Shown: positions 1,993 through 49,900 of the stretch, piece by piece
How the letters are laid out: the number at the start of each line of letters is the position of its first letter
Numbering within the stretch: the stretch's first letter is position 1
Assembly: GCA_905178155.1 (NCBI GenBank)
Contig: CAJINV010000015.1
Span: forward strand, 271,309 to 335,308
DNA: 64,000 nt
Origin: Amoebophrya sp. A120
Lineage: Eukaryota > Protista > Dinoflagellata
Direction of reading: 5' to 3'
Notes under the pieces: generated by a model
Seen by the model: only the letters and a program-made list of their open reading frames with translations
Told to the model about the DNA's origin: nothing
Database searches by the model: none
Position numbers and translations under genes: made by a program

Positions 1993-4900
1993 TATCCAAG
2001 AAAAAAACTGTGTTAGTGTAAGTCTTTTGGGAAAACAGCATCACAAGTTTGTCTGCCATGGCAGGACAAACTTGTTATGCGCAGATACAAAGGGAAAACA
2101 CATAGGAAGCGAGCCGGTCATGCATGTCGAGCATGACAAGTGTAACTGTTTTGCATCTTCTGCATCACAGATTTACACTTACACAGTTTTTTTCTTGCAT
2201 ATGTACTCCAAAACTGGTAAAACGGTTTCGAACTCCACGTCTTGGCTGACCAGAACGCTCAGGTCGTACAGCCGCTGCAACACAGCATTGATTGTGTTTT
2301 TGCTTTATGAATTGTAAAAATGTCTGGGTCTGGAAGATTGCCAGATTTGTCATGCTAGTCTGGCATGACTCTGAACTCTGTATTGCGTGCCCGCGAAAAG
2401 GGCTTTCTACCTGTCATGCAAAAACGCAGTCTCTCATGCGGATTACGCAACTCTAAACCACGGAAAAACTTGTCATGCTGGACAGCGCATTACAGTGAGC
2501 TCACTCTTCCCTTTCTTGCATCACAAGTTTCCAGACCCAGACATTTTTGCATTTGATATGCTTTTCGGGGAACTAGAGCTCGACTTCTTCGCGATAATCT
2601 CTTCCAACCCGCAATCCGCAAAGAGGATCAAATTCTTATGGGACTTTCAAACGTAACATTCTCAACTGCTACATGCATTTGTCATGCAGAATCACGATCA
2701 TGCTTCTCACGATCAAGCTTCTTCGCATGAAAAGTTTTCGACAAACTAAATAGCATTACAATCTGTGCCAAATGATCTGTAATGCACCACGCGCGAGCAG
2801 GTCCCCCCTTTCACTTTTGCCATTGTTGCATTACAAATTCATGTAACAATTGAGAATGTAACGTTTGAGAACGCCATAATTCTTGATCATTTCCGCCGAC
2901 AAATCCATGGGGCGAGACAGCATGTCGCAGTACGCAATTTGCAACTCCTGCTTGTGCTTCTCGATCCTGTTACGTTCCTCCAAACTCCTCTGCGTTTGTT
3001 CCCCAGCACGTGCTGTTTGTTCAGAACCACTAGTGCTGTTACCCCCTACCATCTGCTGCAAGAAGTCCCCGGCCGGCGTTTGCCCACCGGCAAATTATCA
3101 AATGTAAAAATGTCTGGGTCTGGAAGATTAGAACTTGTCATGCTAAATCTGAAGCAGGGAAAAAACTGTGTTGCATGATTGCCAAAAGTTGTGCACTTTT
3201 GACCTAGTCGGGAGGCAGTTTCTCATGCAGGATAGGCATTAGAAAGGACCCGCAGAACCTGTCATGCTATGTCCTACATACCACACCTCATGGGTCATGG
3301 AAAATATGCATGACAAATCTAGAAATCTTCCAGACCCAGACATTTTTACATTTGGTACAAATAGTCCTCGTGCAACTGCGGACATGGAGTCACCAAGAAG
3401 GCCGAAAAGTGACTCATCCCGGCTTTGATTCTCCACGATCTTCAGTTGGAAGACGTTTTGGGGAAAAATTTTCCGCATGTTCTTCACGATATCAAGTGCA
3501 AATATGTCTCGGTCTGGAAGATGCGCGTGTTTGTCATGCATCTTCTCGTGCTGGACGACCACACTCACAGATGGTCTGGAATGCACACAGACGCATGGTA
3601 AGTTGTGCGTCAAGCGCTACGTAAAAAAATCAAAATAGGAATCCCGAACATGCTAAATCCTAAAACCCTAACTGCGTCGGCCACGGAACTGTGTCGAAGC
3701 GTGCCTTTATTTGGCGTTCATGCAACACAGATTTTTGTGCGATTCAAATTTTGCATGACAAGTTGCATCTTTCCAGAGCCAGACAGATCTGCAAAAATGC
3801 ATAAACAAAGTCCTGATACAATTTCCCGCGTGACCAGATGTCGGACCGCAGCGACAGCTCTTCCATTTGTTGCGTTTTTCCGTTTTCCAGGGGAACCTCG
3901 ACAATCCGCGTCTGCAAGGCGCCGGCGGCTTGCAGAAATTCCACGCCGAAGTTACGGAGGAAGCCGTGCCGGTGGAGATTAATCAGGTAGATGGACATTT
4001 GCGGTTTCGGGATTTGGCCGCCTCTACTCGAAGAAGAAAACATGCCCCCTGCAAATGTTCCGCTGCGCATCTGGTCTTCCCACACTCTTGCACACTCCTC
4101 TGCGACAGCGCTCATGTCCATTTCGTTTTGCAGGGCGGCCCGCCACAGCTGGTTTTTCAAATCCATCGCTTCTTTCAACGCCTTTGCTTGCTCGGGCCCG
4201 CCCGGTTGGTAGAATTTCAAGTCCAACTCCCTGTCAATCACACCGGAGAGCAGTCCTGCCTCGTCAGCGTCGGGCCCGAGTTGCAAAATGGCATACTGCT
4301 TCCGCAAAAGCCTGTCATTTTCAAACTTCTTTTTCTTCTCCGGTTCTGGGCTGAGCAACTCACTGTCCTTATTTTTCACCTTCTCGTCCCATTCTTGCGC
4401 ATATTTGTCGCCCCACTCGATGATCTCGGCGTGCACAATCTCCGCCATAGAGCTCAATTCCACGAGCGACACCTCGGCGTCAGCCGCGAGGGAAATCTTT
4501 TTTGCCGAGGAACTAGCAGTGGACACCGGAAACAGGACCGTGTTGAAGAGCTTCAGTGTCTCTCTGCAGTGCTTGCGCTGCCACGGCTTCTGGTTCTTTT
4601 CCTGCATGATTGTCGCTTCGGCATGATCTTCTTCGACTACACCGTTCGCCTGCACAGTACTAGTCGCTACGGTGGTCGTCTGGTCGCAAAACGCTAGCGA
4701 TTTCAACAGCGCAGACGATAACAGAAGACTTCTCCGCTCCTCATCGCTCGTGGAGGTTGGCAGCGGAAAGCGGGTCACCAAGCGCGTGTCGAGTTGCGAT
4801 GCGCCGATTTCCGGAGAAATAGGTCCTCCACCCCGGGAAGTACTAGACGTAATCGTGGCGTCAAGAACATCTGGCGACGCTTCGAAGCTGCCTGGCCGGG

Positions 4901-7900
4901 TTCCGGTTAAGCGCAGGTTGAGGATGGTCTGCACGCTCCGCCAGAGCTTCTGCACGTACTCGATGGTTTTCGTGGTGGAGTGGTCCTGTTCCAGCCGTCG
5001 GGCGGTCTCGTACATGGAGAGAGTCTCAAGATTACTGATCTTCTCCCGCTTTTCGCGCTCCGCCCGTTGGGTCTCTGTTTCCGGGGGCGGGTCGTCGCCA
5101 CCGCCGCCAGCACCAGTAACAGATCGAATTTGTTTCACGAATGCCGGCTTCGCAGCATCAGCGGCGTCACCAGCTGCTTTCAGCGTTTGAGAACCTAATT
5201 TCTCTCCCATTGTGCGAAAAAGAAAAACCCATCCGGTTGTCGTCTCAGCGGGTTTATTTTTCGCCGCTGAAGCGCTTGGCGTCATGGGCTTGGAAGTACT
5301 TTTTTTTACCGGGGACGCACTCCCTTCATCGGGAACACCATCTTCATCATCATCATCACCAGACCCCGCGTTCATACTCATGTCGGCAAGATCGGCAGCC
5401 TCTTTTCTTCTCGCCATCTCCTGCATCAGGAATTTCTGCTCTTTCCGTCTCTCCTGCTCCCGAAGATGGGACAACACATTGGAGTACTCGCGAATCACTT
5501 CGTTGCCCAGAGGCTCATCCAACACTAGGTCATCGGACGAGGTGACCGCCATGGAGATTTTGGGCACGAAAAACTCCGCCAGCACCTTGCCCCGGAGTCT
5601 TGCATACCGGTCCCAGGATTTCGTGCACTGATTCTGCTGTTGTTGTACCGCAAGCGTCGTTTGCAGCTGCGGTCCCTCGTTTCCTGTTTGCTGCATTTGA
5701 TGTTCTTCTGTCGTCCGACGGCTCATCTGTATCTTTTTCTGCATATTGACCACATGTTCCCCGAACACCTTCCCCAAAAACTCCGACTGCACCGTTCCGG
5801 CCACCGGTGCGATGCTCAGGATCAGCTGCCGCAGTTCCTGGAAAATCTGTCCGGCTTTGTCGCCCTCAATCTTCGAAGCGGCGGCCGAGTTTGCGGCTGT
5901 GGAAGGGGAAACGGTAGCCGCGGACGCTGCGGAGAGACTCGTGGCGGATAGTCCGCCCGTGGTCTGCTCCAACGTGAAAAGTAGGGAGACGATTGACTCG
6001 ACCAGGTGAAACAAGGCCTCCGTAGACCGCACATCCAAGCGCAACAAATCTGCCGCGCCGGCGGTTGAAGCAGAGCCACTGTTTGATGCACCGGGTGCAG
6101 CTCCTCCTCCACTCGGGCTGCTGGGCATCTCTGGGGAAGGAACAGGGGACGTTCCTGCATCGTCTTCGTCGGAATTATCGCCTTGGGTGTCCTCCAGGTC
6201 GTCATCTTCGCCGATTATACGCGGACTGAGGTATCCTGTGTAAAAACGTCCCCACCCCATAGTCAAGATGGGGATTTTGCAACACAAACCTAGGAGTTTT
6301 GGGAGTCACGCATGACAAGTTGCGCTATGCAGTGTAGTGCAGGTTAGCAAGTGCAGCCGCATCACAGATTCACACTCATCTGCTCATCCTGTTCACAGCA
6401 TCACAAATTTCAAAACACGATTGGAAATGGCTTTCTCTCTCATGGGGATGCGCATTACAAGTCTTCCTGTCTTTGCAAATCTGCATTACAACTCTGGTGT
6501 GGGTACGTTTTTACTCAGGATATGAGGGCCGGGATATTCATATTTCCCGTTCGCCCTTGCGGTAATGTCAAAGATCCAGTTGCTTTCGGGCCGCGTCTTT
6601 TCGGACTAATTGCCTCGATGATTCCCTTATCAAATGCAAAAGTGTCTCGGTCTGGAAGATTGCAACTTGTCATGCTCTTTTTGGACTCTACTAAACAAAT
6701 TTGTGTTGCACGACCAGCAAGAGGGGCACAGTTACAGTTTGTGCTACACGGGCAGGGCATTTCTCATGCGGAAGGTGCATCAGGGCGCCCTCTAAAAGTC
6801 TGCGATGCTAGGCCATGCATTACAGGCATCATGGGTCATGAGATATATGCATGACAAGTCTTGCATTCTTCTAGACCCAAACATTTTTGCATTTGATATC
6901 CCTGGTGGGTCATATCCTCGAGACCGTCCATTGAGATTCCCATGGACCTCGGCATTTCTTGAATCGGCGTCATTACATTCGTGCGCGGGATGGGAGTCGC
7001 CGGACCCATAGACGACGCTGCGGCACTGTAAGCAGGGCTTTGTTGTAGTTGTTGTGCCGCCAGTTGACGTTCTCTCACAAGCGCGTGGTCAATAGAATCA
7101 CTCCTGGGCAGAGACCCCGGTTGGTTGATCTGCGATTGCTGGAAAGAGCGCTCGGTTGTAGTTCCACCCGCGGAAATGAACGTTCGCTCAACAGGTTGTA
7201 CTTGTTGCGGAGGTTCTTGTTGTTCCACAGTCCGTTTGCAAATCGTTTCGACCTGGCTGCGCATCATCGGGATGCCGATTTTCAGAATTTGCGCGAATTT
7301 TTCAAACAGGAAATAGGACCCGTGCAAAATGTTCTGCTTCCGTTGCTCGATCATGACGCGCAGCAAATGCAACAACCTGTCCGTGGACTGCAAGTTCCAG
7401 TTGGACAAAGTGTGCGTGTTGTCAAGCCGTGGTAAGGCTTTCAACGTACGGTCGAGAAACGCGTCAATCACATCTATCATGGAATCCGGGATCGAGCGCG
7501 ATTTGTTCTTCAGGTATTGGAAAAAGACCGGCGTGGATTTCTTCTGCGAAATCCTTTCTAATTCAATAGAGGAGATCGGCTCGTGGGTTTTGAGAAACAG
7601 CGCCTTCTGCAACTGGGTTGCTAAAACCACTTCTGGATTATTTTGCGTCTGCTCGTCAATGAATTCTCCCTGGTCGCCGGCGTCGCTCTGTGGCGTAGTG
7701 TCTGTTTCCTCCATGTTTATGCCGCCTGTTGGGGAGTTGGCCGAGTTCACACGTCCCACTCCTCGTTCCGAGGAAGCTGACAGACTCGAGCCAGAACGAA
7801 TGGGGAGGCGGATTCCTGCAGCCCGCTGAGATTGTTCTTCGGATGCACGACGTGTAACACCAGTAGAACCGCCACTGAGCGTACTCTGCACCCGCTGCTC

Positions 7901-10900
7901 CAAGCGTTGCGCTTCCGACGTGTTGTAGTCCGGCGACTGTCCGGCTTGGGAAGATTCCTCTTCTTCGTCCCCCTCGTGGATTGGAAAGGTCCCCTCACGC
8001 ATCAACGCGTCCGCGCCTGCGGATTCCGAAAATCCGCGGGCACGGCGGCCCTGCGGTGAACTGTCGTCGTTGTCGTCATCTGCCGAAACACCGCCTGGAT
8101 TTTGGCCTCCCGCCCCGGCGGAGGAGGAGGAGAAAATCACATCCGTCGCTCTCGCCGCGTGCTCCATCTGTCGCGCGGCCGCCTCGAATTGCAGCAGTCG
8201 AGCTAAATCCATGGAAATTTCCGGTAATTTCACACTCTGGCTGTTCTGCGCCGCGGTAGCAGCTGCTGGGAGCGGGAATGCGGAGGTGGTTGCGGTTGTA
8301 CCAAGTCCGGAACCACCTGCAGCACTGCTTCCCGCATTAGAAGTATTCAACCCGGCAACGGTGAACGCATTGTTGGTCACGTAGGACATCAAAATCTCAA
8401 AAGCCAGTCTCCTTTCCTCCTTTTTCAGCGCGTAAATCTTCGTATCCCGCATGTTCATCATGCCGGATGACGCAGCGCCTCCTCCGGACGAGGAAGACAC
8501 CGAGATCGTGACGGCTGCCCGTTCTAACAAAATGTCCTTTAAAAACGTCAACGCAATCTCCGGGAGAATGAGATTCAATTTTTGAATCTTCGCGATTCGG
8601 TCGTTGAAGAGTTTTTGAGTGGGGGAGGTGGTGGATGAAGAGTGTTTTAATACAGTGTCGCCTTCTGTTTGTTCATCATCCACAACATTATCATCCGACA
8701 CGTGGATTTGCAACAACTTCAGCAACTCCAACTTCACCTGCCCTTTCAGATTCACCAGGTTATTGCCCCCGGAGTCGGAGGATACTAAAACGACCGCGTG
8801 GATGATCTCCTCCCAGAATTCCGTGGTGAACTTCATGAACGGCAACTTCTGCAAGGTTTTCAGGAATGTGGTCAACTTCTCGCTGTTCCAGAGCAATTCT
8901 AACCTGTGGAGGTCATCCGTGTTCTGGTTCATCTTGTTCTTCTTGTTTCTGGCATTACCTGAGCCCCCAGCGGGTCCGAACGAGGAAGTTCCACCCGCAA
9001 TCGCCATGGCGGCTTTCGACATTTTGCTCACGGAAGACGAGAGCTTGCTGTTGCCGGAAGTCCAGCTAGTAGGGTAGGATGGGAACACTTCTTCGCGCAA
9101 GACGTGCCGGATGATCTCGGTGTATTGCGGTAGCGCCTCTTCCAGAGACAGGAGCCACAGCGTCGGCTCGAGATAGGCGGATTGGCTCGCAATCTCCCGG
9201 GTCGTCGGGACCGCAGTGGCTTGCAAGAGATAGTGCCACACGTACTGCCGTTCCCGTCTTTCCCGCTCTTTCATAGCGGCTTCCTCCGCACTGAGTGCTG
9301 CGCCGGCTGCCTGCGAAGATCCTCCTCGGCGAGCGGCTGCAGCGTAGTTATCAGCGTTTGATTGCCTACTATTCCCCTTCTCCTGTCCAAAGTCCAAGGA
9401 ACTCTGGTTGATCAAAGTCCGCTGCAGGTTCGTCCGCATCGCCAAGACCAAAGCGGCGCGGCGCTGCGCAAATTGGTGCAAGGAATCGATGGTGGCGAGC
9501 TGCCCGCCGAAGAAGGTTTTTTCCGCCGGTTTGTTGTTCGCGATCAGCGCCGCGGTTGTCAAATGGTGTCCGACGGGCAGGTTGCTGTAATCCACCTCGT
9601 CGTCCGCTTTGTTTCCGTCGCTTTTCACGATGTCGACGATGTTCATGTCCATCTCAATGACCGCAGCGGACGGGAGTTTCGCAATACCGGCCTCCTGCGT
9701 CCCCGATACCACGGACCGGATCACTTCGGATTTTTCGTAGGATTTCCACTTTGCAATTTCCGCGACTTTGGCGAATTTCTGCAATTTCTTCTGCGCTTCA
9801 ACGAAGATCAACTGCTTCAAAACGAACTGCTGCAACCCCGTGATGATCTGTTTGGACATCTGCAGCGCCTGCTTCTCGATCTCGTTAAATTCGTGTCGCG
9901 CTTCCCGGGTTTTCAGAATCGAGTGCTGGCGGTTCTGCTCCAAGATCGCCAGCAGAGCGTTGTTTGACTCGAAGTATTTCGCTTCGACATCGTCGAGAAA
10001 GACGATGGAGGTGGGAAGAGCTGTACTACCAACTGACGCCTGATGTAGTTGTTGTCCCGCCCCACCAGGGTTCGAACCCGAGGGCCCTTGCTGTTGCTGC
10101 TGACCTGTTGCGCCACCTTGCTGCGCATTACCGCCAATCACGGCCGCCTGTTCCCTCGCAGCCATGTTGTTGGTGCAACAAGCCGCCGTCATGATTGCGC
10201 TTTCCAAGTCTTCCTTATCTTTCGCCACAGCGTCGCGCCAGTTGTTCTCCAGCTCCGCGTTGGGAGAACCGGTAAGAAGCGTGCGGAAAAGCGGAAAGAG
10301 CTCAAAAACCACCGGGTACTCGTCTTCCTGATCAATTTCCTCCTCTGCCCCCTCACCAATATCCTTCGCGTCACCAGCGATTAGACCGGGCGACCTTTCT
10401 GCTTCGCTGGAGGCCGTGGACTTGATGCTGTCTTTTCTGCTGAAGCTCTTAGGAGTGGAGGTGGAGCCGTCTCCAATGCGAGGATCAGACGCAGAAGATC
10501 CGGTTCGCTGTGCCGTCGGGGTTGGTTGGCCCGAGGAGGAAGACGCGCTGCCGATGCTTGGCTGGGCCGTCATTTCCTGTCCTCCGTCTACATCCATGGC
10601 ATCTTCGGGGGCTCCGTCTGCATCGTACTTAATAACTTGCTCCGCCCCAGATTCGCTAATGCTAACTTTCCTCGCAGCTCTAGTTGAAGGTGTTCCCTGG
10701 CGGGGCGAGGCGGCTGGAGCGGCTTCCTCCCCTATGCTGGGTAAAAACGTCCCCGCCCCAGAGTTGTCACGCAAATCTGCATGCCAAAAAAGTTTCTCAT
10801 GCGGAGCCCCATGAGAAGCATTCTCTAGTTGTGTTTTGGAGTTTGTGATGCTAGAATCAGCATGATGTCCTAGATCTGTGACGCTGCTGAGCTAGCGAAA

Positions 10901-13900
10901 CAGGATCACACTATGAGGGCAAACTTGTCATGCGAAATAGCGAAAGCTGGATGATTTGTCTAGCAGATTTCCCATCTTGCCTCTGGTGTGGAGACGATTT
11001 TGCTCAGGATATCCCCAACACGATGGTCAACATCTCCTGCCGTGCTACTGGGCGCACTGGATATCGCAAGAAAAAACTGTTTCACTGTGAACTTGTGATG
11101 CAGAAAATGGAACACAGAACTATTTGTCTTGCTACACCTGCAAGGCATTGGATTTCCAAGCGTGTTTTCCCTTGGGAACCGCGCACGACAGGTTTTCAGT
11201 GTCATGCGTAGCAAACTTGTGATGCAGATCTTGCAAAAACATTACAGTGAAAGTGAAACAGTTTTTTCTCGTGATACTGGACGAAGTTGGCGTATTGCTG
11301 ACCTGTCGCTCCATCTGTGGACCGCCGGGGCGCATGGAAACCGGCTCGCCCGACATGGTCAGAAATTCGGCCGGTAAATCCGGCATCTGCGACGGCTCCT
11401 CCAGCACCATAGGCGCTGGAGCCAGGTCGGCAGGGTCAAGTTCCCGCTCCTTCGGACGGCGCGCAGAAGGTGGTGGCTCCATTTCCACTTCCTCACCTTC
11501 TTCGGAATTACCATCGGCCCCGGCGTCGCGCATTTTCGCGTCTGCGGCGCCGTCAGGAGCCTCCTGGATAACCGGACCGGCGTCAACCTGCATTGGTATA
11601 GCTTTTGCAGCTGCCGGTCCCGCAGAGGCTCGTTCACGCACGGCCGCGGCAGCTGCCATTTCCCCAGCACCGCCGACTGCTTCTGCTGCAAAATTGAACT
11701 GTTGAGATGAGACCGTGCTGTAGGCTGGCCCGTCTTCGGGCACAGCCATGGTCGGTGTCCGTACTTCTGCCGCTTCTGCTTGCTCTTTTTGCGCGGCACC
11801 ACCAGTGTCAGTAGAGGCGCGTTCTGTCGCTTTTGACGTCACTTCAACCTGCTGAAAGAAGCTTCCCGAAGCTTGATATGCGTCTTTCCGTGTACCTTTG
11901 GTGATCAGGGGCAGGCGGTTCAGTTTTGCGTACAAAAACAACCCGAGCCTTTCAAACCCAACTGACCCACCCCCATCCAGCGCTAGCAATTCCAAAAACC
12001 CTTGGAGCATGCTGTTGCGCATCTGCAGATTCTCGTCATCCGACGTGTTTTTGAAGGCAATATTTGTCCAGTAGAACGCGAATTTCGTCCGCAGCGGGTT
12101 CTGCGGCTTACCACTCTCGAAGGCCTCGGCTTTGTCGTTGTTGCTCGGTCGAAAGGAAACGCCATCCAAGAGCATCACTGTGTCCTTACTCGTTTGACCG
12201 GCTGATCCTTGTTTGTTTCCTTGAACAGCACCTCCCGTCGTCTCTTGCTGACCGTAGTTCGCACTACTACCTGCAGTCGCACTGCCCCCACCAGACGACA
12301 CCGTGTGGCCGGCAGTGTTTCTGAAGATCTGGGTCTCCCACTGCCGAAATCTCGCCCAAGCGAGGACATCGTCTAAGGACTCCGGAGTTTTACTAGAGGA
12401 CTTCGGCCCAGACGTTGCTGCACCGGATAATCCACCGTCCGCGCTTTGATGATGTTCTTGCGCGGCTTTCACCGCCTGATCGTGTAACAGCGCTTGCACG
12501 GACCCGAGGAGTGTCATCAAACTGTACACCGCCACATTGGGGATTCTTCCATACGCATTGTCGCTCGTCAATGCGATCGTGGGGTTCTGCGGGAGCATCA
12601 CCGAGCTGCCACTCCGTCTTTCGTCATTGGTCTCTTCATCCACCACATTGGCCCAGTCCTTCGTCGCAATGGCAATTTTCGAAGCGGTGATGCGTTCGAT
12701 CTCGTGTCGCTGCTTCTCCAAGCTGTTGATCTTGTTCGTTTTCCGTTTCAATTCGACGCGTTTTTGCTGCACGTTTTGCTCCAAGGCTGCAACCTTGGTC
12801 TGCAAGGTTTCGTATTCCTGCTTCAAGCGGAGCTCGTCTACGTATTCGGCATTGTGCGCTTGTTCGGCAGGAGCTTGTAGGTTCTCGAGAAAGATTTTTA
12901 CCATCTTCCTTCTCTCTTCCATCTTGTGTCGTTGTTCGGCGTCATGCATGTCTGGGAGGTTCTTCTCGATCTCCCCGATCTCGAACAGAAAATTGTCGCG
13001 CTTTTTATCCATTTCATCCTTCACCTGGAAGTATTCCCCTTCCTTGCTGCGCAGCCGCGGTTTGTGCAGATCTAGTTCCTGTTCGTTCTCCCGTAATTCC
13101 CGCACATTTTGCCGCAAGATCTGCCGCTCTTCAATGGTTTTGTGCAACAAAAGCGAGATCTCCGGGCGGATCAAATCGTAGATGATTCTGCCCGGATTCG
13201 GGAAAACCGACGCGCCGAGGGCGTATTCGGATAACGTCACGACCAGCTCAGTAGAAACGGAATTGGGTAAAACATTCATCGTCCCGGCGGAAGATAATAA
13301 ACCCGCTTGCGGAGCAAGATTTTTCGACGTCCCAGAGACGTCTTTGCCAGCCCATACGTGGAGGGAGAGAATCCTCAGCGCGTTGATGATCAAATTTTTC
13401 GGCCGGGGGAACAGTTCCGCGAGCTCCCCGCGGTTCGAGAGCATGTAGGATTTCTCTTTGAAGGCCTTTGACTGTTTCTCCATCTCGTCCAGCTCCTGCA
13501 GATTCTCGTCAATCATGGCCTCCGCGTTCGCAAACGCTGCGGAGGTTGCTCGCGCCGCATTGTTACTACCTCCCAAATTCGACGCGCTGCTGTTCTGCCT
13601 CTGCAGGCCTCCCGCGCGAGCAAGGTCCTGCTCTTTTTTCCGCTGGTTCCGTTTTTCCTTTTCTTTTTTCTCCTTTTTCATCTGCATCCGCGTCTTCATT
13701 TCCCAGGCGGAAGAATCCGACCACCGCTGGCCAGAGAGTAGAACGTTGTGAAGCAGCTGCAGAATTTGGGGCGAGAGTTTGAACGCAAATTTCGTGAAAG
13801 CGGGAGGAATCTGCGACGAGGAAAGTTTCGATCCCGAGAGATCAAAAGTTTCCGCCTGTTGCGAGTCTATGCTCTGAGAGCGACGCCGGTGTAAGAACTG

Positions 13901-37900: not shown

Positions 37901-40900
37901 TCGTTCTTCACTTGGTCATAGTCGTCCCTTAACGGTAATTGATGCACGGCAAGGAGGTTCTCGTCGTTCTCATCCCCGAGGTTATCTTTCGTTACTTCCA
38001 GCCCGAGTAGCGACCAGGAGTCAATCTTTTCTGTTTTGTACGCACCAGGATACTGGTCGTGGTTTTTCCGATGCATGATAGGAATCAGGTACAATTCCGT
38101 AGCATGTTGCTTCATTTTCAACATCTGGGGGGCAGCACTACTACCACCTGATAGTACAGGTTCGCTGTGCAGCTGTTGTTCCTGCTGACCAAGAACGGCA
38201 GCTCCTGCTGCCCCTTCCTGTGCATTCGCGTTCAGAATCTCGTTGGCTAGACTCTCCATCAACGGCGACAGAGAATCCTTCGAGGCACTGTGGGTCCGTT
38301 GCCTGTTATCAAATGCAAAAATGTCTGGGTCTGGAAAGTTGTGATGCAAGAAGTGGATGATAGCCGGACTGCAATACGCAGCCCAGCATGACAAATTTTT
38401 GAGCTGCTATGTGTTGCGTATTCCGCATGAGAAACTGCGTTTTTGCATGACAGATAGGCGAGGCTTTTCGTGCCCATGCATCACAGATTCTAGAGTCATA
38501 TGACATGCATGACAAATGTAAGAATCTCCCAGACCCAGACATTTTTGCATTTGATACCTGTGGTTCTTGTGCGAGTCGGCATAAACGACAGGACTCATCT
38601 ATGACGCTCTCAAGCGTTACACTCTCAACTGTTACATGGATTTGCAATGCAAGAACAGCAACAGTGAAAGTGGCAAGATTGCAGCTTGTGCATTACAAAT
38701 TTGGGACGGATTATCATGCTGTTTATTAGCCCTTAGAAAATTTGGCATGCTGAGCATCTTGATCAAGTGGAGGCTGATGACAATTTTGCACGACAAATCC
38801 GTGTAACAGTTGAGAATGTAACATTTGAGAGCGCCATATCATCCACTTTGTGATACGGGGGAGGATATTAGTATTGCTGCTGCTTCCTGCCCCTGCGGCA
38901 GCATCTCCTGTCGCTGCACTTGCTCCAGGATCCGCAAGCAATTTGTTCTCCACCATCAGCTTTTCAATCTGTTCATTGATCTCCATTTTCGCTTTAGAGA
39001 GCTCCTTTTTCGATTCCTCAAGTGCCTTTTGGACAACGGGCGAGGTGTGGTGGAGCTCAGCTTTCTTCCCGGTAAACGTTTCGGAAAACATTGCGAACAA
39101 ATTATCCAATTCCCGCATTTCATCTTCATCGTCGTCATCGTCTTCGGATTCGGAATTATTGGCCGCTTGAGATGAACCATTGTTCTCGCCTCCGTCCTGT
39201 TGACCATGTTTAGGCGAGGGGTCAGTGTTTTCGCCACTGTGGCTCCCGCCGTCCATGGCATCGTCGCCATTGGTACCTTCCGAACCACTTTTCATCATAT
39301 CGGGTTTGTAGATTTTTGCGGCAAGTTTCAGGAGATTTTTCTTCCAGGATTCGCGCTCCAAATTCGCAGTGACATCGTGCAACACGAACTTGTTGAAGAA
39401 CACCTCATTGAAATCGTGCGGACGCATCTTCAGTTGGAGTTGCTCCATTTTACTGTTTCTGCCATGATAGCTGTTATACCTGGCTGAAGAGGTTGTAGTA
39501 CTTCCCGCTAGGTAGTCGAACGATGCCTCCGACGAAGCAGCGCTGTTGTCGTCGTTACCAGAAGATTTATCATCTTCCGGCAACAACTTCAGCATCTTCG
39601 TTTGCGCTTTGATGAAGTCCGAGTCGCGCTGCATCATCGTTTTTGCAGAAACAACTGCACCACCTCCAGACGCGGCAGTTCCCGCAGCTCCTTGCTGCAC
39701 GTAGTTCACCGCCCGTTCGAGCAAAAACGTCAAAGACTGGACCAACTCAGAGCGTAGAATGGAGTGCTGGCGTCCGAGTAGCAGCAAGTCCGCCTGAATG
39801 TTCTTCGTCTTCAGTTGTTTCTCGGTTAGTTTCGCGCCGTTCTGCTCGGTGGTCGAAGCCATTTGGATGTTCTGGGTGGGCTCGTCAAAATTCTGGCCGT
39901 CCATCATGCTGTCGAGCTGCAACTCAGCATTCAATTCCTGCTCATCGAGGATAGATTCGAAATCACCACCGTCAGAGTCTTGGTCTGATTCCTCGAAGTT
40001 GTCACCTTGGTGGTCTGCTGTTGGGTAGTAGCCGGAGCCATCACCTGGTTGCGCGGTTTGGCCTTGGTTCATATCTGCTTCAGGAGCCCCCGTTACAACT
40101 TGTTGCACTTGATCCCCGGGACCAGCACCAGTGGTTGCCGCTACAGCTGCACCGTCAGCAGCGGCTTCCGACGCAGCATCGTCACTGTCTTCCATTTCAA
40201 CATCTTCTGGCTCAGCTGCGGGAGGGGCAGGAGGTTCTTCCAAAACAATTTCGCCTAACCCCGTTTCTAACGCTTTCAGTTCCGTCTTTTTCGTGGCCAA
40301 ATAGGCAGGGTTGCGATTCTCAACTGACTGCTTCACGCCCGTTGGTCTTGGTAGTATTCTAGCAGCCAGGTCAACATCTTCCGCCACCTCTGAAATGTCA
40401 AGCTGCTCCTTCCACGCCGTCTTTACGAAGTCCTGGATAACACTGGTCTCGGCACTGAAGAGTTTATCGACGAGTTTTTGCACCTTATACAGGGCCCACC
40501 AGAGTGCTTTCTCTGGTTTCGGCATCTCTTCGTAAGGTTTGTAGGTTTCGTCCTTCTCGTTCATGTAAGCTGGTATACCGCTTTCGTCCATGAGTTCACT
40601 GTCGTCCACCCAACCCCACCACTTCTTGTACGCTACAACCGCGGCTTTGACAGCCTCCAGGAGTTCCCCGCGCAACTGGGTAAGTTCCTCGAAACGTTGG
40701 ACAGCAGCCGCGTGTTCGGCAGCAGCAGCGGCAGCAGCAGCAGCGCGTTCAGCAGCAGCAGCAGCTTTAGCTGCTTTTGCAGCTTCTGCAGCCGCAACCT
40801 CTTCGGCAGAAGGACCAACTGTAGACGCCGCGTGGTCCTGCCCGTCTTTAGCAGGAGGACCTGCAACTACTTCATCGACCCTTTGCACAAATTTCATCGG

Positions 40901-43900
40901 ATTCTTTCTCTGTTCCACTTCTCTTTTTATCAGCACCTCCAAAAGTTCCATCTCGTGCCGCGGCACCCACGGAATGAACTCCGAATCGGGACCGTGGACT
41001 TTGGTTAACAGAAGCAGTAGATCCTGGATCGTCACACCGACAAAAGACGATGCTTCTGCATTTGCACTACCGGTACTAGACCCGCCTACTTGTCCTGCTC
41101 CTGCTGGTGCACCAGAAGTAGAACCACTACTAGCAAAGAACCCGGGATTCATGAAGAGCATGTTGTGCAAAATTTCCAACACCTTCCTCAATGTCCGCGC
41201 CAGAGCAGTCTGCACCCGCAGCGCGTCAAACCGCTTTCGTGCGGGTAAAGAGCTGATAAAGCCGGTGCACGGACTGCCGAATTCCCCGTAGAGTTGCAAG
41301 TTCGATTTGTACAAGTCGTTTAACTGTTGACTCGTCTGCTGCGCACTATCAAATGGGTTGTTCTTGTTTTGCGCATTATTATTCGTCCCCGTGTTCATCC
41401 CACGAATCTTTTCCAAGTCGTCTGCGTTACCGCACAAGCCGAGCCCAGCGAGCTCTTCATTCGAATCATTGAGGTCCATCATGGCCTGACCGAGATGCTC
41501 AAACTTTACCGCGTCATCTAACGGCAGCGGCATGTCCTGCACGACGGTCATTTGCTTCAGATTGTCGTAATAGACCGGGACAATGGCCGACCTCACCTCC
41601 TTTTTCAGCACCTTGTTCGCCTCCGCCTGCAGTTGCTTGGTCAGCTCGGATTCCGATCGCTGTTGCTGCGTTTGCTCGGCCCGCATCGATTCGGATTCCA
41701 AAAAGTCCAATTGGTCCTCAATTTTTGTCTTCCGCAATTGCTCCTGCATGGGGCTCAGATTTGCCGGGCGGAAGTTCATGTTGCTCTCACTCGCCGTAGC
41801 GGCGTCCGTGTTAGGAGCATCTGGATTTAGTCGACTCTGCTGATTTGATATGGTGGCGTCAACGACGCTTTTTTCAAGTATGCTGAAAATTTTGATATGC
41901 ATTTTTTTTCGCATGACGATTGGGGTTCCGAGCACTTGGGCGACACTCGAAGACATCGCGCCCCGTTCCCACAGGGCCTGTGTCTATCAGCTTGGAGGCT
42001 GGCCACGTCAAGCTCCTCCGGGACCCACTTCATGGAGGGCCCGCCGCGTGGCATTCGCTGTTGGCGAGGCGCCACGGCGTCCCGAAGTGCAGCAAGGGGC
42101 GCGCCCCTATGTGTTGGTAATGCGCATGCCCCGCCGCGCGGGCACACTTCGAGCAAATAGAGGCCTTGCACAGGTTGGGCAAACCTCGACGATGCCGCGC
42201 AACATTGGGCCGCGTTTTTGGTTTCCCATCGATTCGGCGCGCCCGCGTCCGTGGCGAAGCTTAGCTGGGTTTGCCGGGCCGGCCCCCCACGCAACCAGGA
42301 GGGGGCCCGCCGCCTCTTGGCAAAATCCACAGCGAGCCCGCCGAAGCCTTTGCCGGGGTATGCCCCCGCGGCCGCGCAAGCCTGCCGGGCCCCGCGCGAC
42401 CTGCCAGGCGACTGCGGGCCAGTAAATGCACTACCAGGAAAGCGTCGGCGGCAAGCCCCGGGGGGCGCCTCCGGAAGGGGTGAAAAGATGCCCCCCAAAA
42501 AAACGCGAAACCCCAGCGAATGATGCCCCTCAAAGAGGCCCCCAAACGTCCCGGAGCAATTGCCCGACGCCGGGCAGAGAATTCTCCGGAAATTGCGCCG
42601 AAGGACCTCTGCCTGTGCTTGGAATGCCTCGGAAATAAAAGTTGGCCCGAGCGCCGCCGCCAGGGATTTTGCTTCGCGATAGGCGCCACTGGCGCCTGTC
42701 AAGGGGGCGCGCACAGATTAGCGAGAGCAAAATGTTGGTGGTGTAGGGTCCGCGCGCTTTGGCGGGCCAGGGTTTCCGGCCGTGTCCGGAAAAGCTGGCC
42801 CCCGTCCGGCTTTTTCTTTCAAGGTGCATTTTTTGGCATTACTTTCGCCCACTGCGCCCAATGTCTTCGCCGCTGGTATGTCGGCAAGGGTTTCCATAAA
42901 CAGAGGAGAGACGGGGGGCCAACGAGGAAGCCGTGGGCGGATGTCGGGAGGCGCCCTCCCTCCCCGAAATGATCTCAGACAATGCGCGCGGGCCAACACG
43001 GCGGGCCTGTTCATGGGCGTCTAGCTTGGCTCCCCCCTCATTGGGCCTGCGCAATCAAGTGCGCGGCCCGCTTCTGCAGTTTCATTGCCCGAATGCGCAC
43101 GGGCGGAAGGGCGGCGCATTTGCAAAAAATACGCATACAAAAATTCTCAGCATACTTGAAAAAAGCGTCGTTGACCGGGCCATATTTGAAGATGCTCCGG
43201 GAGAAGTTGTACTTCCACCCCCGGCTCCACTGCCTGATTTGCTGTCGATTTCCACAAGTTTCGCTTCATTGTCGAAAGCGTGGCTCGTAGTCACCACCGC
43301 TAACCGCGCGACTAGATCTTCCGCCAACAATAACAGCTGCTTCAGAAAGCGGTCACGTAAAGGCTTTTCGACATTGGGATCGGCGGTGAAGCCAAAGAAC
43401 GCAGAGTTCGCATCGGCGTTTCCAGATAATTCTCCTTGTCTGCGACTCATTTCGTCTAGCACGCCTGAGGAGAGAGTCTGGTGGTCCGGCAAACCTGTGT
43501 CCGAATTCTGGTGGGTTAACATCGTTGGAGATCCCTGAAGATTAGAAGCATGACTGCCGCCCCCTCCGCGGCTGCTCATTCCCATCGGCGTCGAGATCTC
43601 CGTCGGGGCTTGGGAGGCCGTCTCCCACAAGTCAAACTCGTCATCGTCCGTCTCACTTCCACCGCTCCCGAAGTCTCCGCCACCACTTATGGAGTTCTCG
43701 AATGTTATACAGTCTCAACTGTTACATGATTTGTCATGCGAAATTGTCAGCAATATCTACAGGATCAAGCTGCTTCGCATGACAAGTTCTCGACTCGCTT
43801 CTAGATAGCAGAAGAATCTGCGCAAAATAACCTGTAATGCAAAGGGCGCAATCTTCGCCCTTTCAATTTTGCCACTTTTGCATTACAAGTTCATGTAACA

Positions 43901-46900
43901 GTTGAGAATGTAAAACATCTGAGAACTCCATACCACTTCCCGCGACGCGTTCCGCCCACTCGAACAGGTCTTCCGCAATGTCGTATTCTGAGTAAAAACA
44001 TCCCCAACCCCAGAGTTGTCATGCAAATCTGCATGCCAAAAAAGTTTCTCATGCGAAGCCCCATGAGAAGCTTTTATTTCTATTCGTGTTTTGGGATTTG
44101 TGATGCTAGAAATAGCATGACATGATGGATCTGTGATGCTGCTGGACTAGCTAAACAAGATCACACTACGAGGACGAACTTGTCATGCGAAACAACCAAA
44201 GTTTGCTGATTTGTCTAGCAGATTTCCCATCTTGACTCTGGTATGGGGACGTTTTTACACAGGATATGTCGGGGGTGATAGGGGTCGGGATTGATGTGCT
44301 CATTTGTTCCTTCTGCTTCGCAACATTTCTCACCGCTGATAAGTCCAAGTTTTCCTTCTGAATTATGTGGTATTGCTCCGGAAATCCGGTCCAGGACTGC
44401 AAAAAGCGGTTCAAATACCCACAGGTAGATTTGATCACGCCATTTGATCTAGCGTCTTGTTTGATCGAGTTGAAAGCATTCGCGAACGCAGTTTGCTTCA
44501 CAGCTGCCAGAGCGCCGGGGATTGCAGCAGCTCCGTGGCCACCGAGCATGACGTTGATTGCTTGTCGCTCCGACCGTGTTCCTTGCAGCTGGTGCAGCGG
44601 TCCTGGGGGAGTAACTACCCTTGAAGAGGTGGCTCCACCGCTAGTTGTACCGCCTTGGCCTTCCGCAATGCGCATGACAATATCGCCTCCGCCACCTCCA
44701 TGTTGGCCTTCGGACATCAAACCGTACGGATTGTTGCCGGCTGTGAAATCTGCCCCACCCGGCGTCTGTGTCGGGGTTTCTACCTGCTGGAGCCGCTGTC
44801 CCGGGGAACCTCCAAGGTCCAGCGTCGCGCGCCGGTTCATTCTGGGACGAACGGCACCTCCTACAGCCGGAGTCCTACCACGGGCTGTTGCAGGAGGGGA
44901 ACTGGTCGAACCACCTGGAACTCCTGTCGTCAACTTTGTCGCCAAATTGATCATTTTTGCCCGGAATTGCCGACTGGGAAAGAACCGCACCCGGCGGTTT
45001 TCCTTTTGCCACTGACTCGTCTGCTGGGCAGCTCCTGCGCCCATTGCGGTGTTCATTCCAGAGGAGGCATATGGCGTTCTCAAATGTTACATTCTCAATT
45101 GTTACATGATTTGTCATGCAAAAAGAGCACCAACGTCCACACGGTGAAGTTACTTCGCATAACAAATTTTGCAAGGGCTAAACAGCACAGGAATCTGTGC
45201 CGAATTATTTGTAATGCAAGAGTTGTAAGCTCCGGCCTCTCCCTGTCGCCATTCTCGCATCACAAATTCATGTAACAGTTCAGAATGTAACGATTGAGAA
45301 CTCCATAAGGCGGAGCCCGAGCTTTTGATCTGAAAATCCTGCACGACAGAAACCATGCGCGCCACCATGCTGGCACTCATGTTGCTACTCGTTCTGGAAG
45401 AGGAGGAGCTTGTTCCACTGGCAGCTCCACTTTCTTGCATATCGCGGCTTTGGATCTGCAACAGGTCCGCAGGCCCGGCTCTTTCCAGTTCTTCGGACCA
45501 GGTGAGGCGGGGGCTACTGGACTGCTTCGTTTTTCTTTCGGTAGCAGCACTACTTCCAGATTTGTCCGTTTCTTGACCCGACCCAGCAGCGACATCGGTG
45601 CCCGTCAAAATCAAGTTTTTCTGCTCGTCTGAAATGTTCGGATCGATGACCGCCCGCATCTTCGCGTGCAGAGTCCAGAACTGGAGCTGGAGGGGATAAT
45701 TCTTTTGTACCGCTTCTCTCTGTTGCTGTTTCTCCGCCTGGGACTTCTTTTTCTGCCAACCTCCCGGCGCGTTTTTCTCGGCGATCTTTTCGTTTGCCTC
45801 CCGCCACACATCGTATGTTCGATCCTCTTTTCGGTTCTTGCTGTTCATCAAGTATTTCATCAAGAACTCCAACGTTTTCTCCCACTGCGGATTTTTTGCC
45901 CGCTGCGTAACACCTGGAATACCTTCACTAACAGCCGCATTCGAGCTTGTAGTTGCACCAGCATTTATTCCGCCAGTCAGCGACAGTTTCTCTTCATTTT
46001 CGCGCATTTTCTCCGCCTCGCTCTCGAGAGCAAAAGCCGGACCGAGGATCAGATCCACAATGGCATTCCGCATGGGGCTATGAACTGCAAAAGTACCGTA
46101 CTAGTATGAATTGCACTACAAATTTCCTTAGCATGAAAAAAGAAATTTGTAATGCTGATTTGCCGTTAAGAGAGATATTTGTCATGCATGGCTGCAATTG
46201 CTACGAGTACGATACTTTTGCATTTGATATGGGCCGCGCTCCGTGTCCACGTATGGATCAAAGAACGCCTCTATGTATCAAATGTAAAAGTGTCTGGGTC
46301 TGGAAGAATGCAACTTGTGATGCTGAATTTGGATTCCAAAAAAATCTGTATTGCATGAGCAGCAAAGGGAGTGCAATTTTTGCTACGCGGAGAGGGCATT
46401 TGTCATGCGGAATAGGCATCAGGAAGCCATCACAAAATCTGTGATGCTAGGGCATGCATCACAGACATCAGGAGTCATGCAAAATGTGCATGACAAACCT
46501 GGCAATCTTCCAGACCCAGACATTTTTACATTTGATACTATGTAGGCCGCAGCGATAGGGTGTTGACCAGCGAACTTGAATTCAGCACCGCTAGTACCTG
46601 CTTCAGGGTCCTTCAGCGCCCAAGCTTGGAACAGAGGAAGCAGTTGCCCAAGCACGATGTCCGAGGGGAGAATCGATGAACTCGATTTCTGTTGACCAGG
46701 TGTTGACAGCTGCGACGTTCTTTGCGCGGAACCAGAGTTGGACGGGGATAAACCCGACACCAGTAAGGATAAGCAGCGGATGTACAAGGCCTGGTAGAAT
46801 TTGATTTGGTCCCGCGCGATAACAGGCTCTTCGCCAGCCTGCGCAGTATCAAATCGGACCACGTCCTGGTTATTCAGGAGCGGGCGAACCTGGAGGTCTT

Positions 46901-49900
46901 TGCCGTCTCGCTGGGCGAAAGCCAACTTCCACAAACTCCTAACTGCCTGTTCCAGCACGTCCCGCTTCTGGCTGTGGTTCATCGCATCAGATTCTGATGC
47001 TTGACTATACCCACTACGACCGAACCCCCCCTGCTGCGATTGCTCCGTCGAACCGGCTCCGCCGGACTGATCGAACAAAAATGTCGCCTCGCGCTGCTCG
47101 GTAGAAGAAGATGCGCCTAAGGGGCTGATGATCACACCTTTCACGCGATTCCGATCGAGGAACACGTCAGAGGTCTGCATGTCCGCCGGAGATAAAGACT
47201 CGTACGCTTGCTGTCTCGAAACCGGGGTCTGAAAGGCGCTCTGCGGCTCAGCGTCGCGAAACGTGATGAAGTCAGTGTTCTTCGTGGAAATGCCGAAAAC
47301 GCTGTTGTAGGTGTTGGAAAGGTAGTAGAAGGTAGACGGTGGTTTGCTCAAATTGCGGTAGTCGTCAAGGGTGGCAATCTTATTCATTCCTCTGTTGAAG
47401 TAGACCTTGCCGCCTTCGCCCCTATGATTCATCGGGCCGCTGGTTGTAATTATTCCGTTCATCTCGTCGCTGTTGCTTTGGCGCATCATTTCCGCGAAAA
47501 GGAAATCTAGGTAGTTGGAATGCTGCGACACGAAATGCGTCATGCTTCGCAGGGCTTCCCCCGTGTTACCACTCACAGTATGAAATGCAGAAGTGTCTGG
47601 GTCTGGAAGAATGCAAGATTTGTGCTGCAGGTTTTCCATGACCCATGAGGTCTGGAATGCGAGACCCAGCATGACAGAATCTTTGAGGTCTCTATCATGC
47701 CTTTCCTGCCTGAGAAACTGCCTCTCAACTTGGTCAAAAGCGGACAGCTTTTGGCACTCACGCAACACAGATTTTTGCACCATTTAGATTTAGCATGACA
47801 AGTTCTGATCTTCCAGACCCAGACATTTTTGCAGTTGATACACAGTGCCCCCGGATTGCAGTTCCCTCACCTCGTCTAAATTCGCCTTCTGCGCTTGAAA
47901 CGGCAGCACGTAGTGCGCGAACTGTGCGAGCGCCAGCTCGTGGAGCTTTGAGATCTTCAGATTGGAGTGCAACAGCGTTTATCAACTACAAATATGTCTG
48001 GGCCTGGAAGAGTGCAAGTTTGTCATGCTTGTCTGGCATGACTCGACAATCTGTGTTGCATAGGCACGCAAAGGCCCTCTTACCTGTCATGCAAAAGCGC
48101 AGCTTGCCATGCGGAATACGTAAGACATGGCAGCCAAAAAATTTGTCATGCATAGCTGCGTATTGCAGTGTGTCTGTCATTCACTTTTGGCATTACAAGT
48201 TTCCAGACCCAGACATTTTTGCAATCCATAGCGTGCCGACTTGGAAAAGGATCTCCGCATGGAGATCCAAGACCTCGTTGGACTGGTTGACGTAGTCTTT
48301 ATCGCATTTAAAAACGACCCCTAGCCATAGTTGCAATGCAAATCTGCATGCTAAAAATGTTCCTCATGCGGAGCACCATGCGAAGCAGTTTCTAGTCGTG
48401 TTTTGAAACTTGTCATGCTCCAATCCACATGATGAACTAGATCTGTGACGCTGCTGAGCTAGCTCAAACAGCACTATCTACACTACGAGTCCAATTTTGT
48501 CATGCAAAACAGCCAAAGCTTGTGGATTTGTCTAGCCGACTCCACATCTTGACTATGGGGTGGGGATGTTTTTACATAGGATAGTCTTCAAAAGTAAGTT
48601 TGGCCGCGGCCGCGCTGGTGGTCGTGCTGTCGCCAGTTGTTGCACAAGGACCGCTATGCTGTGCAAAAGTATCGGACTCGTATAAATGCAACAGCAAGTC
48701 TTGCAAACATTACAAATATTTTTCTTAAGGCAAAACCGCATTACAAATTTTAGTTCTCATGCTGGGAAAATTTGTAATGCATTTAGACGAGTACGATACT
48801 TTTGGTTTTGCAATTCATATCCTCCACCTGTCGTCGTGGCTGCTGGTCGTACAGGTGTGCTAGAACTGCAACCACCTCCACCGCTCAACATCTCCGCGTT
48901 TCTCATGTTTTGCAAATTTTGTTTCGCGCGGAAGCGTTTACCAGCCCGTCGGAAGTACAGGGATTCCTTGCCTGAATCCTCATATGCACTGCAACAGTAT
49001 CGTACTCGTAGTATTGCAATACAAATTAGCTCAGCATGAGAGAGGAAATTTGTCATGCTGATTTAGCTTGAAAAAGAAACTTGTAATGCATACGTGCAAT
49101 TTTTCCAATTCGCACGAGTACGATACTTTTGCAGTTCATACCTCATCATCAGTGTCCACTTCTCGAACTTGGACGCCTCGCATTAGCACATCTTCATCCT
49201 CCTGTTCATGATCTCCATCTAAAGGTACTAGCATGGTCTCTTTAACCTTCTTGAAGCCCACTTTCCTGAGCCCGATCTTTTTCTCCAGCTTCGTTTTTTT
49301 GCTGTCGACCGAGGCTGCGGGACCGGAAGCCGCTTCGTCTAGAGTTCTACTCTGCTTCGTTTCGAGCAGGTTGGTCCCGTAGACGACTTTTTCCCTCACC
49401 AGGTCGGCCTTCTCCTTTTCCGCGTTTAAGAAGAAGCTGGCGCGTTCCGGCTCCGTCTCCATCAGGACTTCCCCTTTACTGTCGAAGAACAGTGCCGTGC
49501 GGACGAAGTTCGACTTCGAGGTGTCGTGCGCTGCTTCGCTAAAGATGGCTAGCTGATAGCTGATTTCCGTACTCCCTTCCGCCCTGTTGGTACCTGATCC
49601 ATGATGTGATTGGGGTAGAATTTGCTATATCGTGGTGGCGCGAACACAAACGTCTTCCCAAATCCCCAGAGCGCTGGAGCCCCTCGACGGCTGCCAGCTT
49701 GACTTCGTATGTTCTCGAAAGGTCACACCCTTCACAGTGGTGGAACTACGGCTCTGTATAAGTAAAAGCGTATCTGCGCTGCTTCGCAGCGTCTTACGTA
49801 CTACTAGATACAGCAGCGAGGCGTACAGCAGGGACCGCACCGCGACGTCCGCGCCACAGAGGTGGCTGCGGGCGTCGCACTTGTCCGCCCACAGACGTGG

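Follow-up and report, generated by a model that had tools for sequence, protein, structure and literature searches.

Can the same insert be removed from a transcript in whichever direction it landed, and if so, what marks its ends? The question is raised by a 64,000-nucleotide (nt) stretch of the Amoebophrya sp. A120 genome (contig CAJINV010000015.1, positions 271,309 to 335,308; hereafter the window), in which long reading frames are interrupted by 71 elements with inverted terminal repeats. Such elements are already known as A120 introners, described by Farhat 2021 (PMC7789003) as having inverted repeats of the form TAT + 7 nt + AAA and direct repeats at their junctions. In that study A120 introns are backed by at least three short RNA-seq reads, U1 small nuclear RNA (snRNA) was not detected, and the splicing mechanism was left open; since 2021 it has been a standing question how most Amoebophrya introns are removed when they lack GT-AG ends and U1 snRNA has not been detected. 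Published sources are cited here from those parts that were covered. Two-way insertion is already known for other introners, and the literature text searched contained no statement on the orientation of Amoebophrya elements, although figures and dataset supplements, outside the search, may hold one; in the covered text of PMC7789003, "orientation" has four matches, those displayed being on gene order, and "strand" has none. An earlier note on the window proposed that excision is independent of orientation and that recognition relies on a symmetric terminal stem rather than on strand-specific splice signals.

Element pairs in opposite orientations

The four element pairs singled out in the earlier note lie exactly where it placed them and have the lengths it gave. 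Alignment of 2306-2558 with the reverse complement of 17960-18212 leaves 8 mismatches in 253 positions, compared with 26 in 251 for 26832-27082 and 47980-48230 and 49 in 262 for 3096-3357 and 47579-47840, all six elements belonging to family A. Global identities in reverse versus forward alignment are 96.8 and 60.0%, 89.6 and 58.1%, and 81.3 and 56.7% for these pairs, respectively, and 69.7 and 57.2% for the family B pair 6232-6522 and 10733-11011, which spans two subfamilies. The description "near-identical" thus suits the first pair and overstates the second, while the opposite orientation of the third and of the family B pair is borne out. After trimming the terminal 38 nt, which hold the terminal repeats, the interiors align at 97.2 versus 50.0% (2306), 91.4 versus 49.2% (26832), 79.6 versus 46.4% (3096) and 65.6 versus 50.7% (6232), indicating that the likeness is not produced by the inverted ends. 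All long open frames between elements are on the minus strand, so the members of each pair are opposite relative to the direction of transcription inferred from the reading frames, which rules out a plus-strand gene as the explanation.

The catalogue was built from 66 elements found by a script, one of them adjusted at an assembly gap, and five added by hand; flanking-repeat counts over 70 leave out the degenerate element 16838-17127. In silico removal of each element together with one copy of its 5-nt flanking repeat yields 11,845 stop-free codons across 50 elements, 1,786 across 17 and 580 across three, and by this rule all pair members restore the frame, as had been claimed. The degenerate element broke the frame at element + 5 nt, and 288 nt was chosen manually for its removal. 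Removed lengths are spread over all three classes modulo 3, and 69/70 elements, if retained, would cause a frameshift or introduce a stop codon, with the caveat that the frame fixes the removal length only modulo 3.

Six families account for 62 elements, and all six occur in both orientations within the window (same/opposite: A 9/16, B 4/7, C 4/2, D 3/1, E 5/4, F 4/3). The orientation graph is self-consistent, with no inconsistency among 114 edges, and nine elements were left unassigned. Within family B, the 6232 and 10733 subfamilies each have a single orientation in the window; one opposite copy of the former (locus L055) and four of the latter in metagenome loci refute the idea that they are locked to one direction.

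A pattern scan with the family A pattern recovered at least 152 metagenome loci (L001-L152; 411,734 bases), a choice that favours young copies. They contain at least 350 distinct elements, of which 269/350 have a perfect 5-bp repeat, and 66 of the 71 window elements are matched in them at 73-97.5% identity. Among 270 loci elements with 150-nt flanks, a coding signal was present on both sides in 76 and was in phase at element + 5 nt in 74 of these. Similarly, 300-nt flanks were open at element + 5 in 84/225 cases and at + 1 and + 2 in 24 and 17. The phase caller, correct in 65/65 window calls, provided 127 strand-called loci elements. When window and loci were pooled, all eight clusters with at least five copies contained both orientations, the best opposite pairs reaching 96.8% identity, and nearest neighbours were opposite as frequently as they were in the same orientation. 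The pattern scan of viral contigs gave no matches. The RNA runs X4-X6 and contigs X7 match at element ends only and apparently come from other strains, while runs X1-X3, from one sample, behave as same-strain DNA with elements joined to their own exons.

Terminal repeats, target duplication and predicted stem

Nearly all elements start with TAT, end with ATA, and carry an inverted repeat of ~30 bp inside a 5-bp direct repeat. The flanking repeat is perfect (5/5) in 50 of the 70 elements and agrees at 4/5 positions in 15, and no element has a perfect repeat at 6, 7 or 8 nt. TAT is present at 68-70/70 ends per position and A at terminal inverted repeat (TIR) positions 11-14 in 59-66/70, conservation that is partly built in because the element finder itself required most of the TAT/AAA letters. 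Deviations from TAT number 4/336 compared with 95/1632 at TIR positions 15-30, and 4/372 compared with 70/1860 at partner ends in the loci. C or G directly follows TAT at nearly all ends, while the insertion target sequence is nearly arbitrary. Families diverge past TIR position 14, yet each remains self-complementary, and the predicted stem folds in 67/68 elements on either strand (mean -98.1 versus -98.8 kcal/mol). No group I, group II or other curated RNA was identified, Rfam giving no match at gathering score over the 64,000 bases.

Two elements, 52620 and 53748, have reciprocal empty sites within an internal exon duplication. Empty and filled copies align without gaps only at element + 5 (score 143 versus 127 and 129), with gapped alignments at + 2 or + 8, indicating that the 5 bp are a target duplication; these sites speak to insertion and not to what splicing removes. 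Non-autonomous DNA transposons leave such traces: a duplication of fixed length, empty sites and copies in both orientations. Together with the terminal inverted repeats, these hallmarks of a miniature inverted-repeat transposable element (MITE) leave us almost certain that the inserts are non-autonomous DNA transposons of the A120 introner type. They share with A120 introners the TAT + 7 nt + AAA signature at both ends, junction repeats within the 3-5 nt range, a length of ~240 nt, many families, hairpin formation, the lack of a common splice dinucleotide and co-oriented genes. Farhat 2021 (PMC7789003) excluded general mobilisation by a transposase, whereas we find a strict 5-bp duplication and empty sites; that study also covered introns of 40-1000 bp only, while the window includes an element of 1,336 bp. 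A120 introners were placed in several transposon classes by Gozashti 2025 (PMC12130899).

End types at positions 4-10, such as TATCAAATG, TATGGATTG and TATCCTGTG, are common to several families and sometimes decoupled from interior orientation (26832 versus 47980), hinting at an exchange of terminal bases. The motif TG(T/C)(A/C/G)ATGC, a candidate transposase or RNA-binding-protein site, has 226 copies within elements and eight outside, its core GT(A/C/G)ATGC being balanced between strands (117 versus 112). A preference for TATG at 5' ends, 30 versus 21 in the window, was rejected on the pooled counts of 70 versus 72.

Conventional splice signals and the route of removal

Taking all six registers within the repeat, GT-AG fits 3/70 window junctions versus 2.6 expected. 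Adding GC-AG (1), AT-AC (6) and GA-AG (2) brings the total to 12/70, so that the 70 elements as a group do not have, in any register, the GT/GC-AG or AT-AC ends of U2 and U12 introns. Across 196 elements, 5' and 3' ends showed no difference in composition over their first 16 nt (lowest p 0.041 in 16 tests). In a scan confined to the last 12 nt, the branch motif CURAY was present in 0/196 elements and yUnAy in 82/196, equally on both strands. The part of the earlier note denying strand-specific conventional signals agrees with the window; its preference for a stem over sequence is not established. Since the two ends of an inverted repeat read alike in either direction, orientation cannot separate a stem from symmetric linear signals, and because spliceosomal introners also insert both ways, two-way insertion is no proof of stem recognition. 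Introners of Polarella and Aureococcus give rise to introns whichever way they insert, one direction being favoured (10.1101/2020.10.14.339549), and Huff 2016, as reviewed in PMC10228655, describes introners with ordinary splice sites that create introns in either orientation. The TIR introners of Aureococcus, Micromonas and Polarella resemble those in the window in being MITE-like, with a target duplication and either orientation with bias. Their G(T/C/A) and AG sites come from the duplication or from the element itself (PMC10228655; 10.1101/2020.10.14.339549), unlike in the window elements, where only the 12/70 junctions above fit GT-AG, GC-AG, GA-AG or AT-AC. Other Amoebophrya strains use GT-AG (PMC12005148).

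We give an even chance to the reading that element + 5 nt is excised exactly from the pre-mRNA by a machinery that reads the paired ends and the terminal TAT/ATA rather than GT-AG. A transposase acting in trans would insert the element, near-randomly in target 5-mer and direction. In the pre-mRNA the ~30-bp inverted repeat is predicted to fold back and bring the two repeat copies together in either orientation. A machinery keyed to the stem end and to UAU/AUA would set both cuts at a fixed distance from that end, and the exons, cut at matching positions, may be ligated in the manner of euglenid nonconventional introns or of SOS splicing in a precise form. Exon-exon pairing around the cuts is at chance (duplex energy -5.79 versus -5.73 +/- 0.17 for shuffled sequence), which excludes a tRNA-type bulge-helix-bulge route.

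Two known systems provide partial parallels. SOS splicing (Zhao et al. 2025, PMC12779559) excises an inverted-repeat transposon near its repeat ends, rarely at GU-AG; pairing triggers excision even with scrambled repeats, and the predicted fold of 67/68 elements per strand makes those in the window candidate substrates of this kind. SOS splicing depends on AKAP17A, CAAP1 and RTCB, while our comparison is of element sequence only, and the covered text of that paper does not mention Amoebophrya or introners. Euglenid nonconventional introns (PMC12501133, PMC11282704) likewise combine paired ends, a short motif, slidable direct repeats and a likely MITE origin, and those of Euglena need both pairing and motif (PMC12501133). 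The Euglena code is CAG/CTG based, with cuts 3 nt before CDG and 5-6 nt after CHG and a purine next (PMC12501133); the window elements differ in having TAT/ATA, a 5-bp duplication and long repeats.

Several observations weigh against pairing-guided, direction-blind excision. G-U pairs are not in excess among TIR mismatches on the RNA strand (111 G-U versus 126 A-C in 120 of 144 elements, 24 having been dropped for TIR indels), a weak test should long stems be tolerant of mismatches. At TIR positions 4-7 only 34-46/70 elements are complementary, and the stem end is loose, with a pairing probability of 0.5-0.8. TAT conservation falls short of significance when window family A is taken by itself (2/141 versus 14/705), is favoured by the finder and could serve the transposase. 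SOS splicing lacks precision and frequently disrupts the frame (PMC12779559), whereas 50 elements in one reading frame need precision; here one removal length modulo 3 fits 69/70 elements, and the intact frame implies mostly precise removal. Per family, both orientations occur everywhere in window and loci, but pooled family A is skewed 55:30 (p=0.009; 55:27 in separate clustering, p=0.003), in the same direction in window and loci, so equal excision efficiency by orientation is not established. In the loci, GT-AG fits 9/74 junctions versus 2.9 expected (p=0.003, background from window exons) and 11/127 in the larger set, AG|G with an intron starting one base before TAT is weakly in excess (17 versus 9.1, p=0.014; after phase matching 17 versus 11.1, p=0.08; no excess in the window), and insertion phase is biased at 66/35/26 with two callers. 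The largest phase class holds 66/127 loci elements compared with 23/69 in the window (p=0.016).

The donor positions +2 to +5 of a conventional intron resemble TAT followed by C or G, the sequence at nearly all element ends. This favours a modified, U1-less spliceosome that relies on linear signals present in the inverted repeat in either orientation, a possibility to be taken seriously even though we lean against it. The donor would be N|UAU(G/C), beginning with the last base of the upstream repeat, the branch A would lie in the terminal GATA/CATA, and the 3' site would be measured 4 nt beyond the branch motif without need of AG. This register holds for all three window GT-AG cases and 5/9 loci cases, and the loci add the GT-AG excess, the phase bias, AG at repeat positions 3-4 (17 versus 9.1) and G at position 5 (49 versus 38). 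A120 also retains U2, U4, U5 and U6 and 83/89 spliceosomal proteins, six being missing (PMC7789003), and the spliceosomal introners of Polarella insert both ways (10.1101/2020.10.14.339549). However, the window has no G or AG preference (5 versus 5.2; 16 versus 20.4), the branch motifs are restricted to the 82/196 yUnAy-like 3' ends with CURAY at zero, the proposed signals would sit within a duplex, and the loci excesses are no longer significant after phase matching (p=0.08-0.13).

It is very improbable that ordinary U2 splicing acts at cryptic GT and AG dinucleotides within the inverted repeats and leaves short in-frame pieces of the element in the mRNA. Family A ends do carry GTCT, which supplies an in-frame 5' GT and 3' AG, and some stop-free GT-AG option is present in 43/69 elements. 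No in-frame, stop-free option exists in the other 26/69 (up to 40 nt inside and 10 nt outside the ends), including 17960, 47980, 3096 and 6232, and 14 have none even allowing GC or GA donors. The best common register covers 8/24 family A copies, and splice sites from RNA-seq lie 1-5 nt from the inverted repeats (Farhat 2021, PMC7789003, legend S23). We consider it similarly doubtful in the extreme that expressing cells delete the elements from their DNA, much as ciliates do with internal eliminated sequences. A DNA-level enzyme would be consistent with ends bounded by TA, with the direct repeats and with the symmetry of orientation, but contigs of X1 and X2 cross two whole elements unchanged and run into others, and exon-to-exon skips number zero among 15 of 524 joints, a set crowded with further copies of the elements, in contigs that drop rare variants.

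Least credible is that elements stay in the mRNA while ribosomes hop between the matched repeats, any 5-nt repeat containing one whole codon, with the published junction reads being reverse-transcriptase skips: repeat mismatches in the window (17/116 at third codon positions versus 6/224; 1/136 at positions 1-2 of the whole codon versus 5/88) are suggestive, but the loci do not reproduce the pattern (ratio 1.9-2.3; 9/250 inside versus 4/150 outside), and we know of no precedent for fifty hops of 150-1,340 nt in one reading frame. Coding constraint on both repeat copies, as a sliding register or hopping would have it, was likewise not supported: the ratio is 5.5 for the window but 1.9-2.3 for the loci, and testing against the fixed-register limit gives p=0.054 or 0.11 on the pooled data.

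Returning to removal guided by the paired ends, the window narrows the rules to either orientation, almost any target, element + 5 nt and a fixed terminal TAT/ATA. More tentatively, we suggest that A120 may have perfected an SOS-type endonuclease/ligase into base-precise, spliceosome-independent splicing of a UAU/AUA-closed hairpin, in either orientation and almost any sequence, so that DNA transposons have become harmless introns by the tens of thousands. If true, this precise structure-guided route would give nuclear mRNA splicing a third form, next to the spliceosome and error-prone SOS splicing, and might be portable as a sequence-independent intron. The near-identical opposite pair 2306/17960, lying in one transcript, is a built-in control for orientation, and 20 elements with unequal repeat copies, among them 3490, 35080, 53046 and 53350, in which stop codons and codon scores gave no cut register, could expose the cut position in reads.

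Element catalogue, host genes and further observations

Table 1. Introner elements, host genes and related features of the window
Feature	Position or start(s)	Strand or orientation	Remarks
Family A introner	2306..2558	+	253 bp; perfect 5-bp direct repeat; family A reference orientation
Family A introner	17960..18212	-	perfect 5-bp repeat; no in-frame GT-AG option near ends
Family A introner	26832..27082	-	251 bp; perfect 5-bp repeat
Family A introner	47980..48230	+	repeat 4/5; no GT-AG option
Family A introner	3096..3357	+	262 bp; no GT-AG option
Family A introner	47579..47840	-	81.3% reverse complement of 3096-3357
Family B introner	6232..6522	+	subfamily with 18640, 54893, 56440; no stop-free GT-AG option
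Family B introner	10733..11011	-	subfamily with 17540, 22394, 28521, 43984, 48300, 51778
Family A, 250-314 bp	2306..63344; starts 2306, 3096, 6628, 14085, 22087, 46276, 47980, 57231, 60447	2306-like
Family A	3490, 17960, 21528, 24489, 26832, 30204, 34778, 36869, 38307, 47579, 51008, 53046, 54524, 59970, 60811, 63075	opposite
Family A-listed	30830		no orientation assignment
Family C, 235-245 bp	2637..63683	2637, 18295, 43688, 45070 one orientation; 38600, 63439 opposite
Family D, 209-215 bp	1993..57193	1993, 20040, 56982 one orientation; 11062 opposite	30563 a separate cluster
Family E, 145-165 bp	23273..59691	27269, 30006, 48655, 52146, 53350 one orientation; 35080, 37170, 46079, 48983 opposite
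Family E-listed, longer	23273, 59446		no orientation assignment
Family F, 307-329 bp	19027..59398	19027, 33970, 52620, 59073 one orientation; 31306, 53748, 57974 opposite
Family F-listed	26481, 36014		no orientation assignment
Further introner family, 308 bp	62712..63019		five relatives in metagenome loci
1,336-bp element	41849..43184		TAT...ATA inverted ends; perfect 5-bp repeat
Degenerate element	16838..17127		removed length must be divisible by 3 (288 nt taken); ends uncertain
Host gene 1	272..49624	-	11,845 stop-free codons after removing 50 elements
Host gene 2	50842..63738	-	1,786 + 580 stop-free codons flanking assembly gap (N at 61128); 17 + 3 elements
Internal exon duplication	52437..54246		two reciprocal empty sites (elements 52620, 53748)

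Host gene 1 (272-49624, minus strand) is an orphan reading frame of 11,845 codons: a protein search with two of its exons found no homologue, and a Pfam search with six exons found no family above the cut-off. The two halves of host gene 2 are probably one gene. About 100 bp at 61040-61226 is duplicated on both sides of the N at 61128, likely an artefact of the assembly gap.

The 1,336-bp element (41849-43184) is GC-rich, with inverted ends of ~60 bp, and behaves like the short elements, the frame being kept when element + 5 nt is removed. It is possibly a decayed autonomous element; Pfam gave no match in 6 of the 22 listed open reading frames overlapping it. At the degenerate element, a minus-strand GT-AG intron of 303 nt (16832-17134, read by eye) also keeps the frame, a possible conversion to a canonical intron. 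The flanks of the family A element 53046-53297 agree at 1/5 positions, with the frame still kept at element + 5; lying within the internal duplication, it may be a recombinant.

Exons between elements are often short, 28/68 measuring 30-105 nt where 8 are expected under uniform placement, and none falls below 30 nt (3.3 expected). Elements may cluster in this way because insertion is targeted beside those already present or because exons have a minimum size. Exon lengths in the metagenome loci peak at 30-69 nt (75/224).

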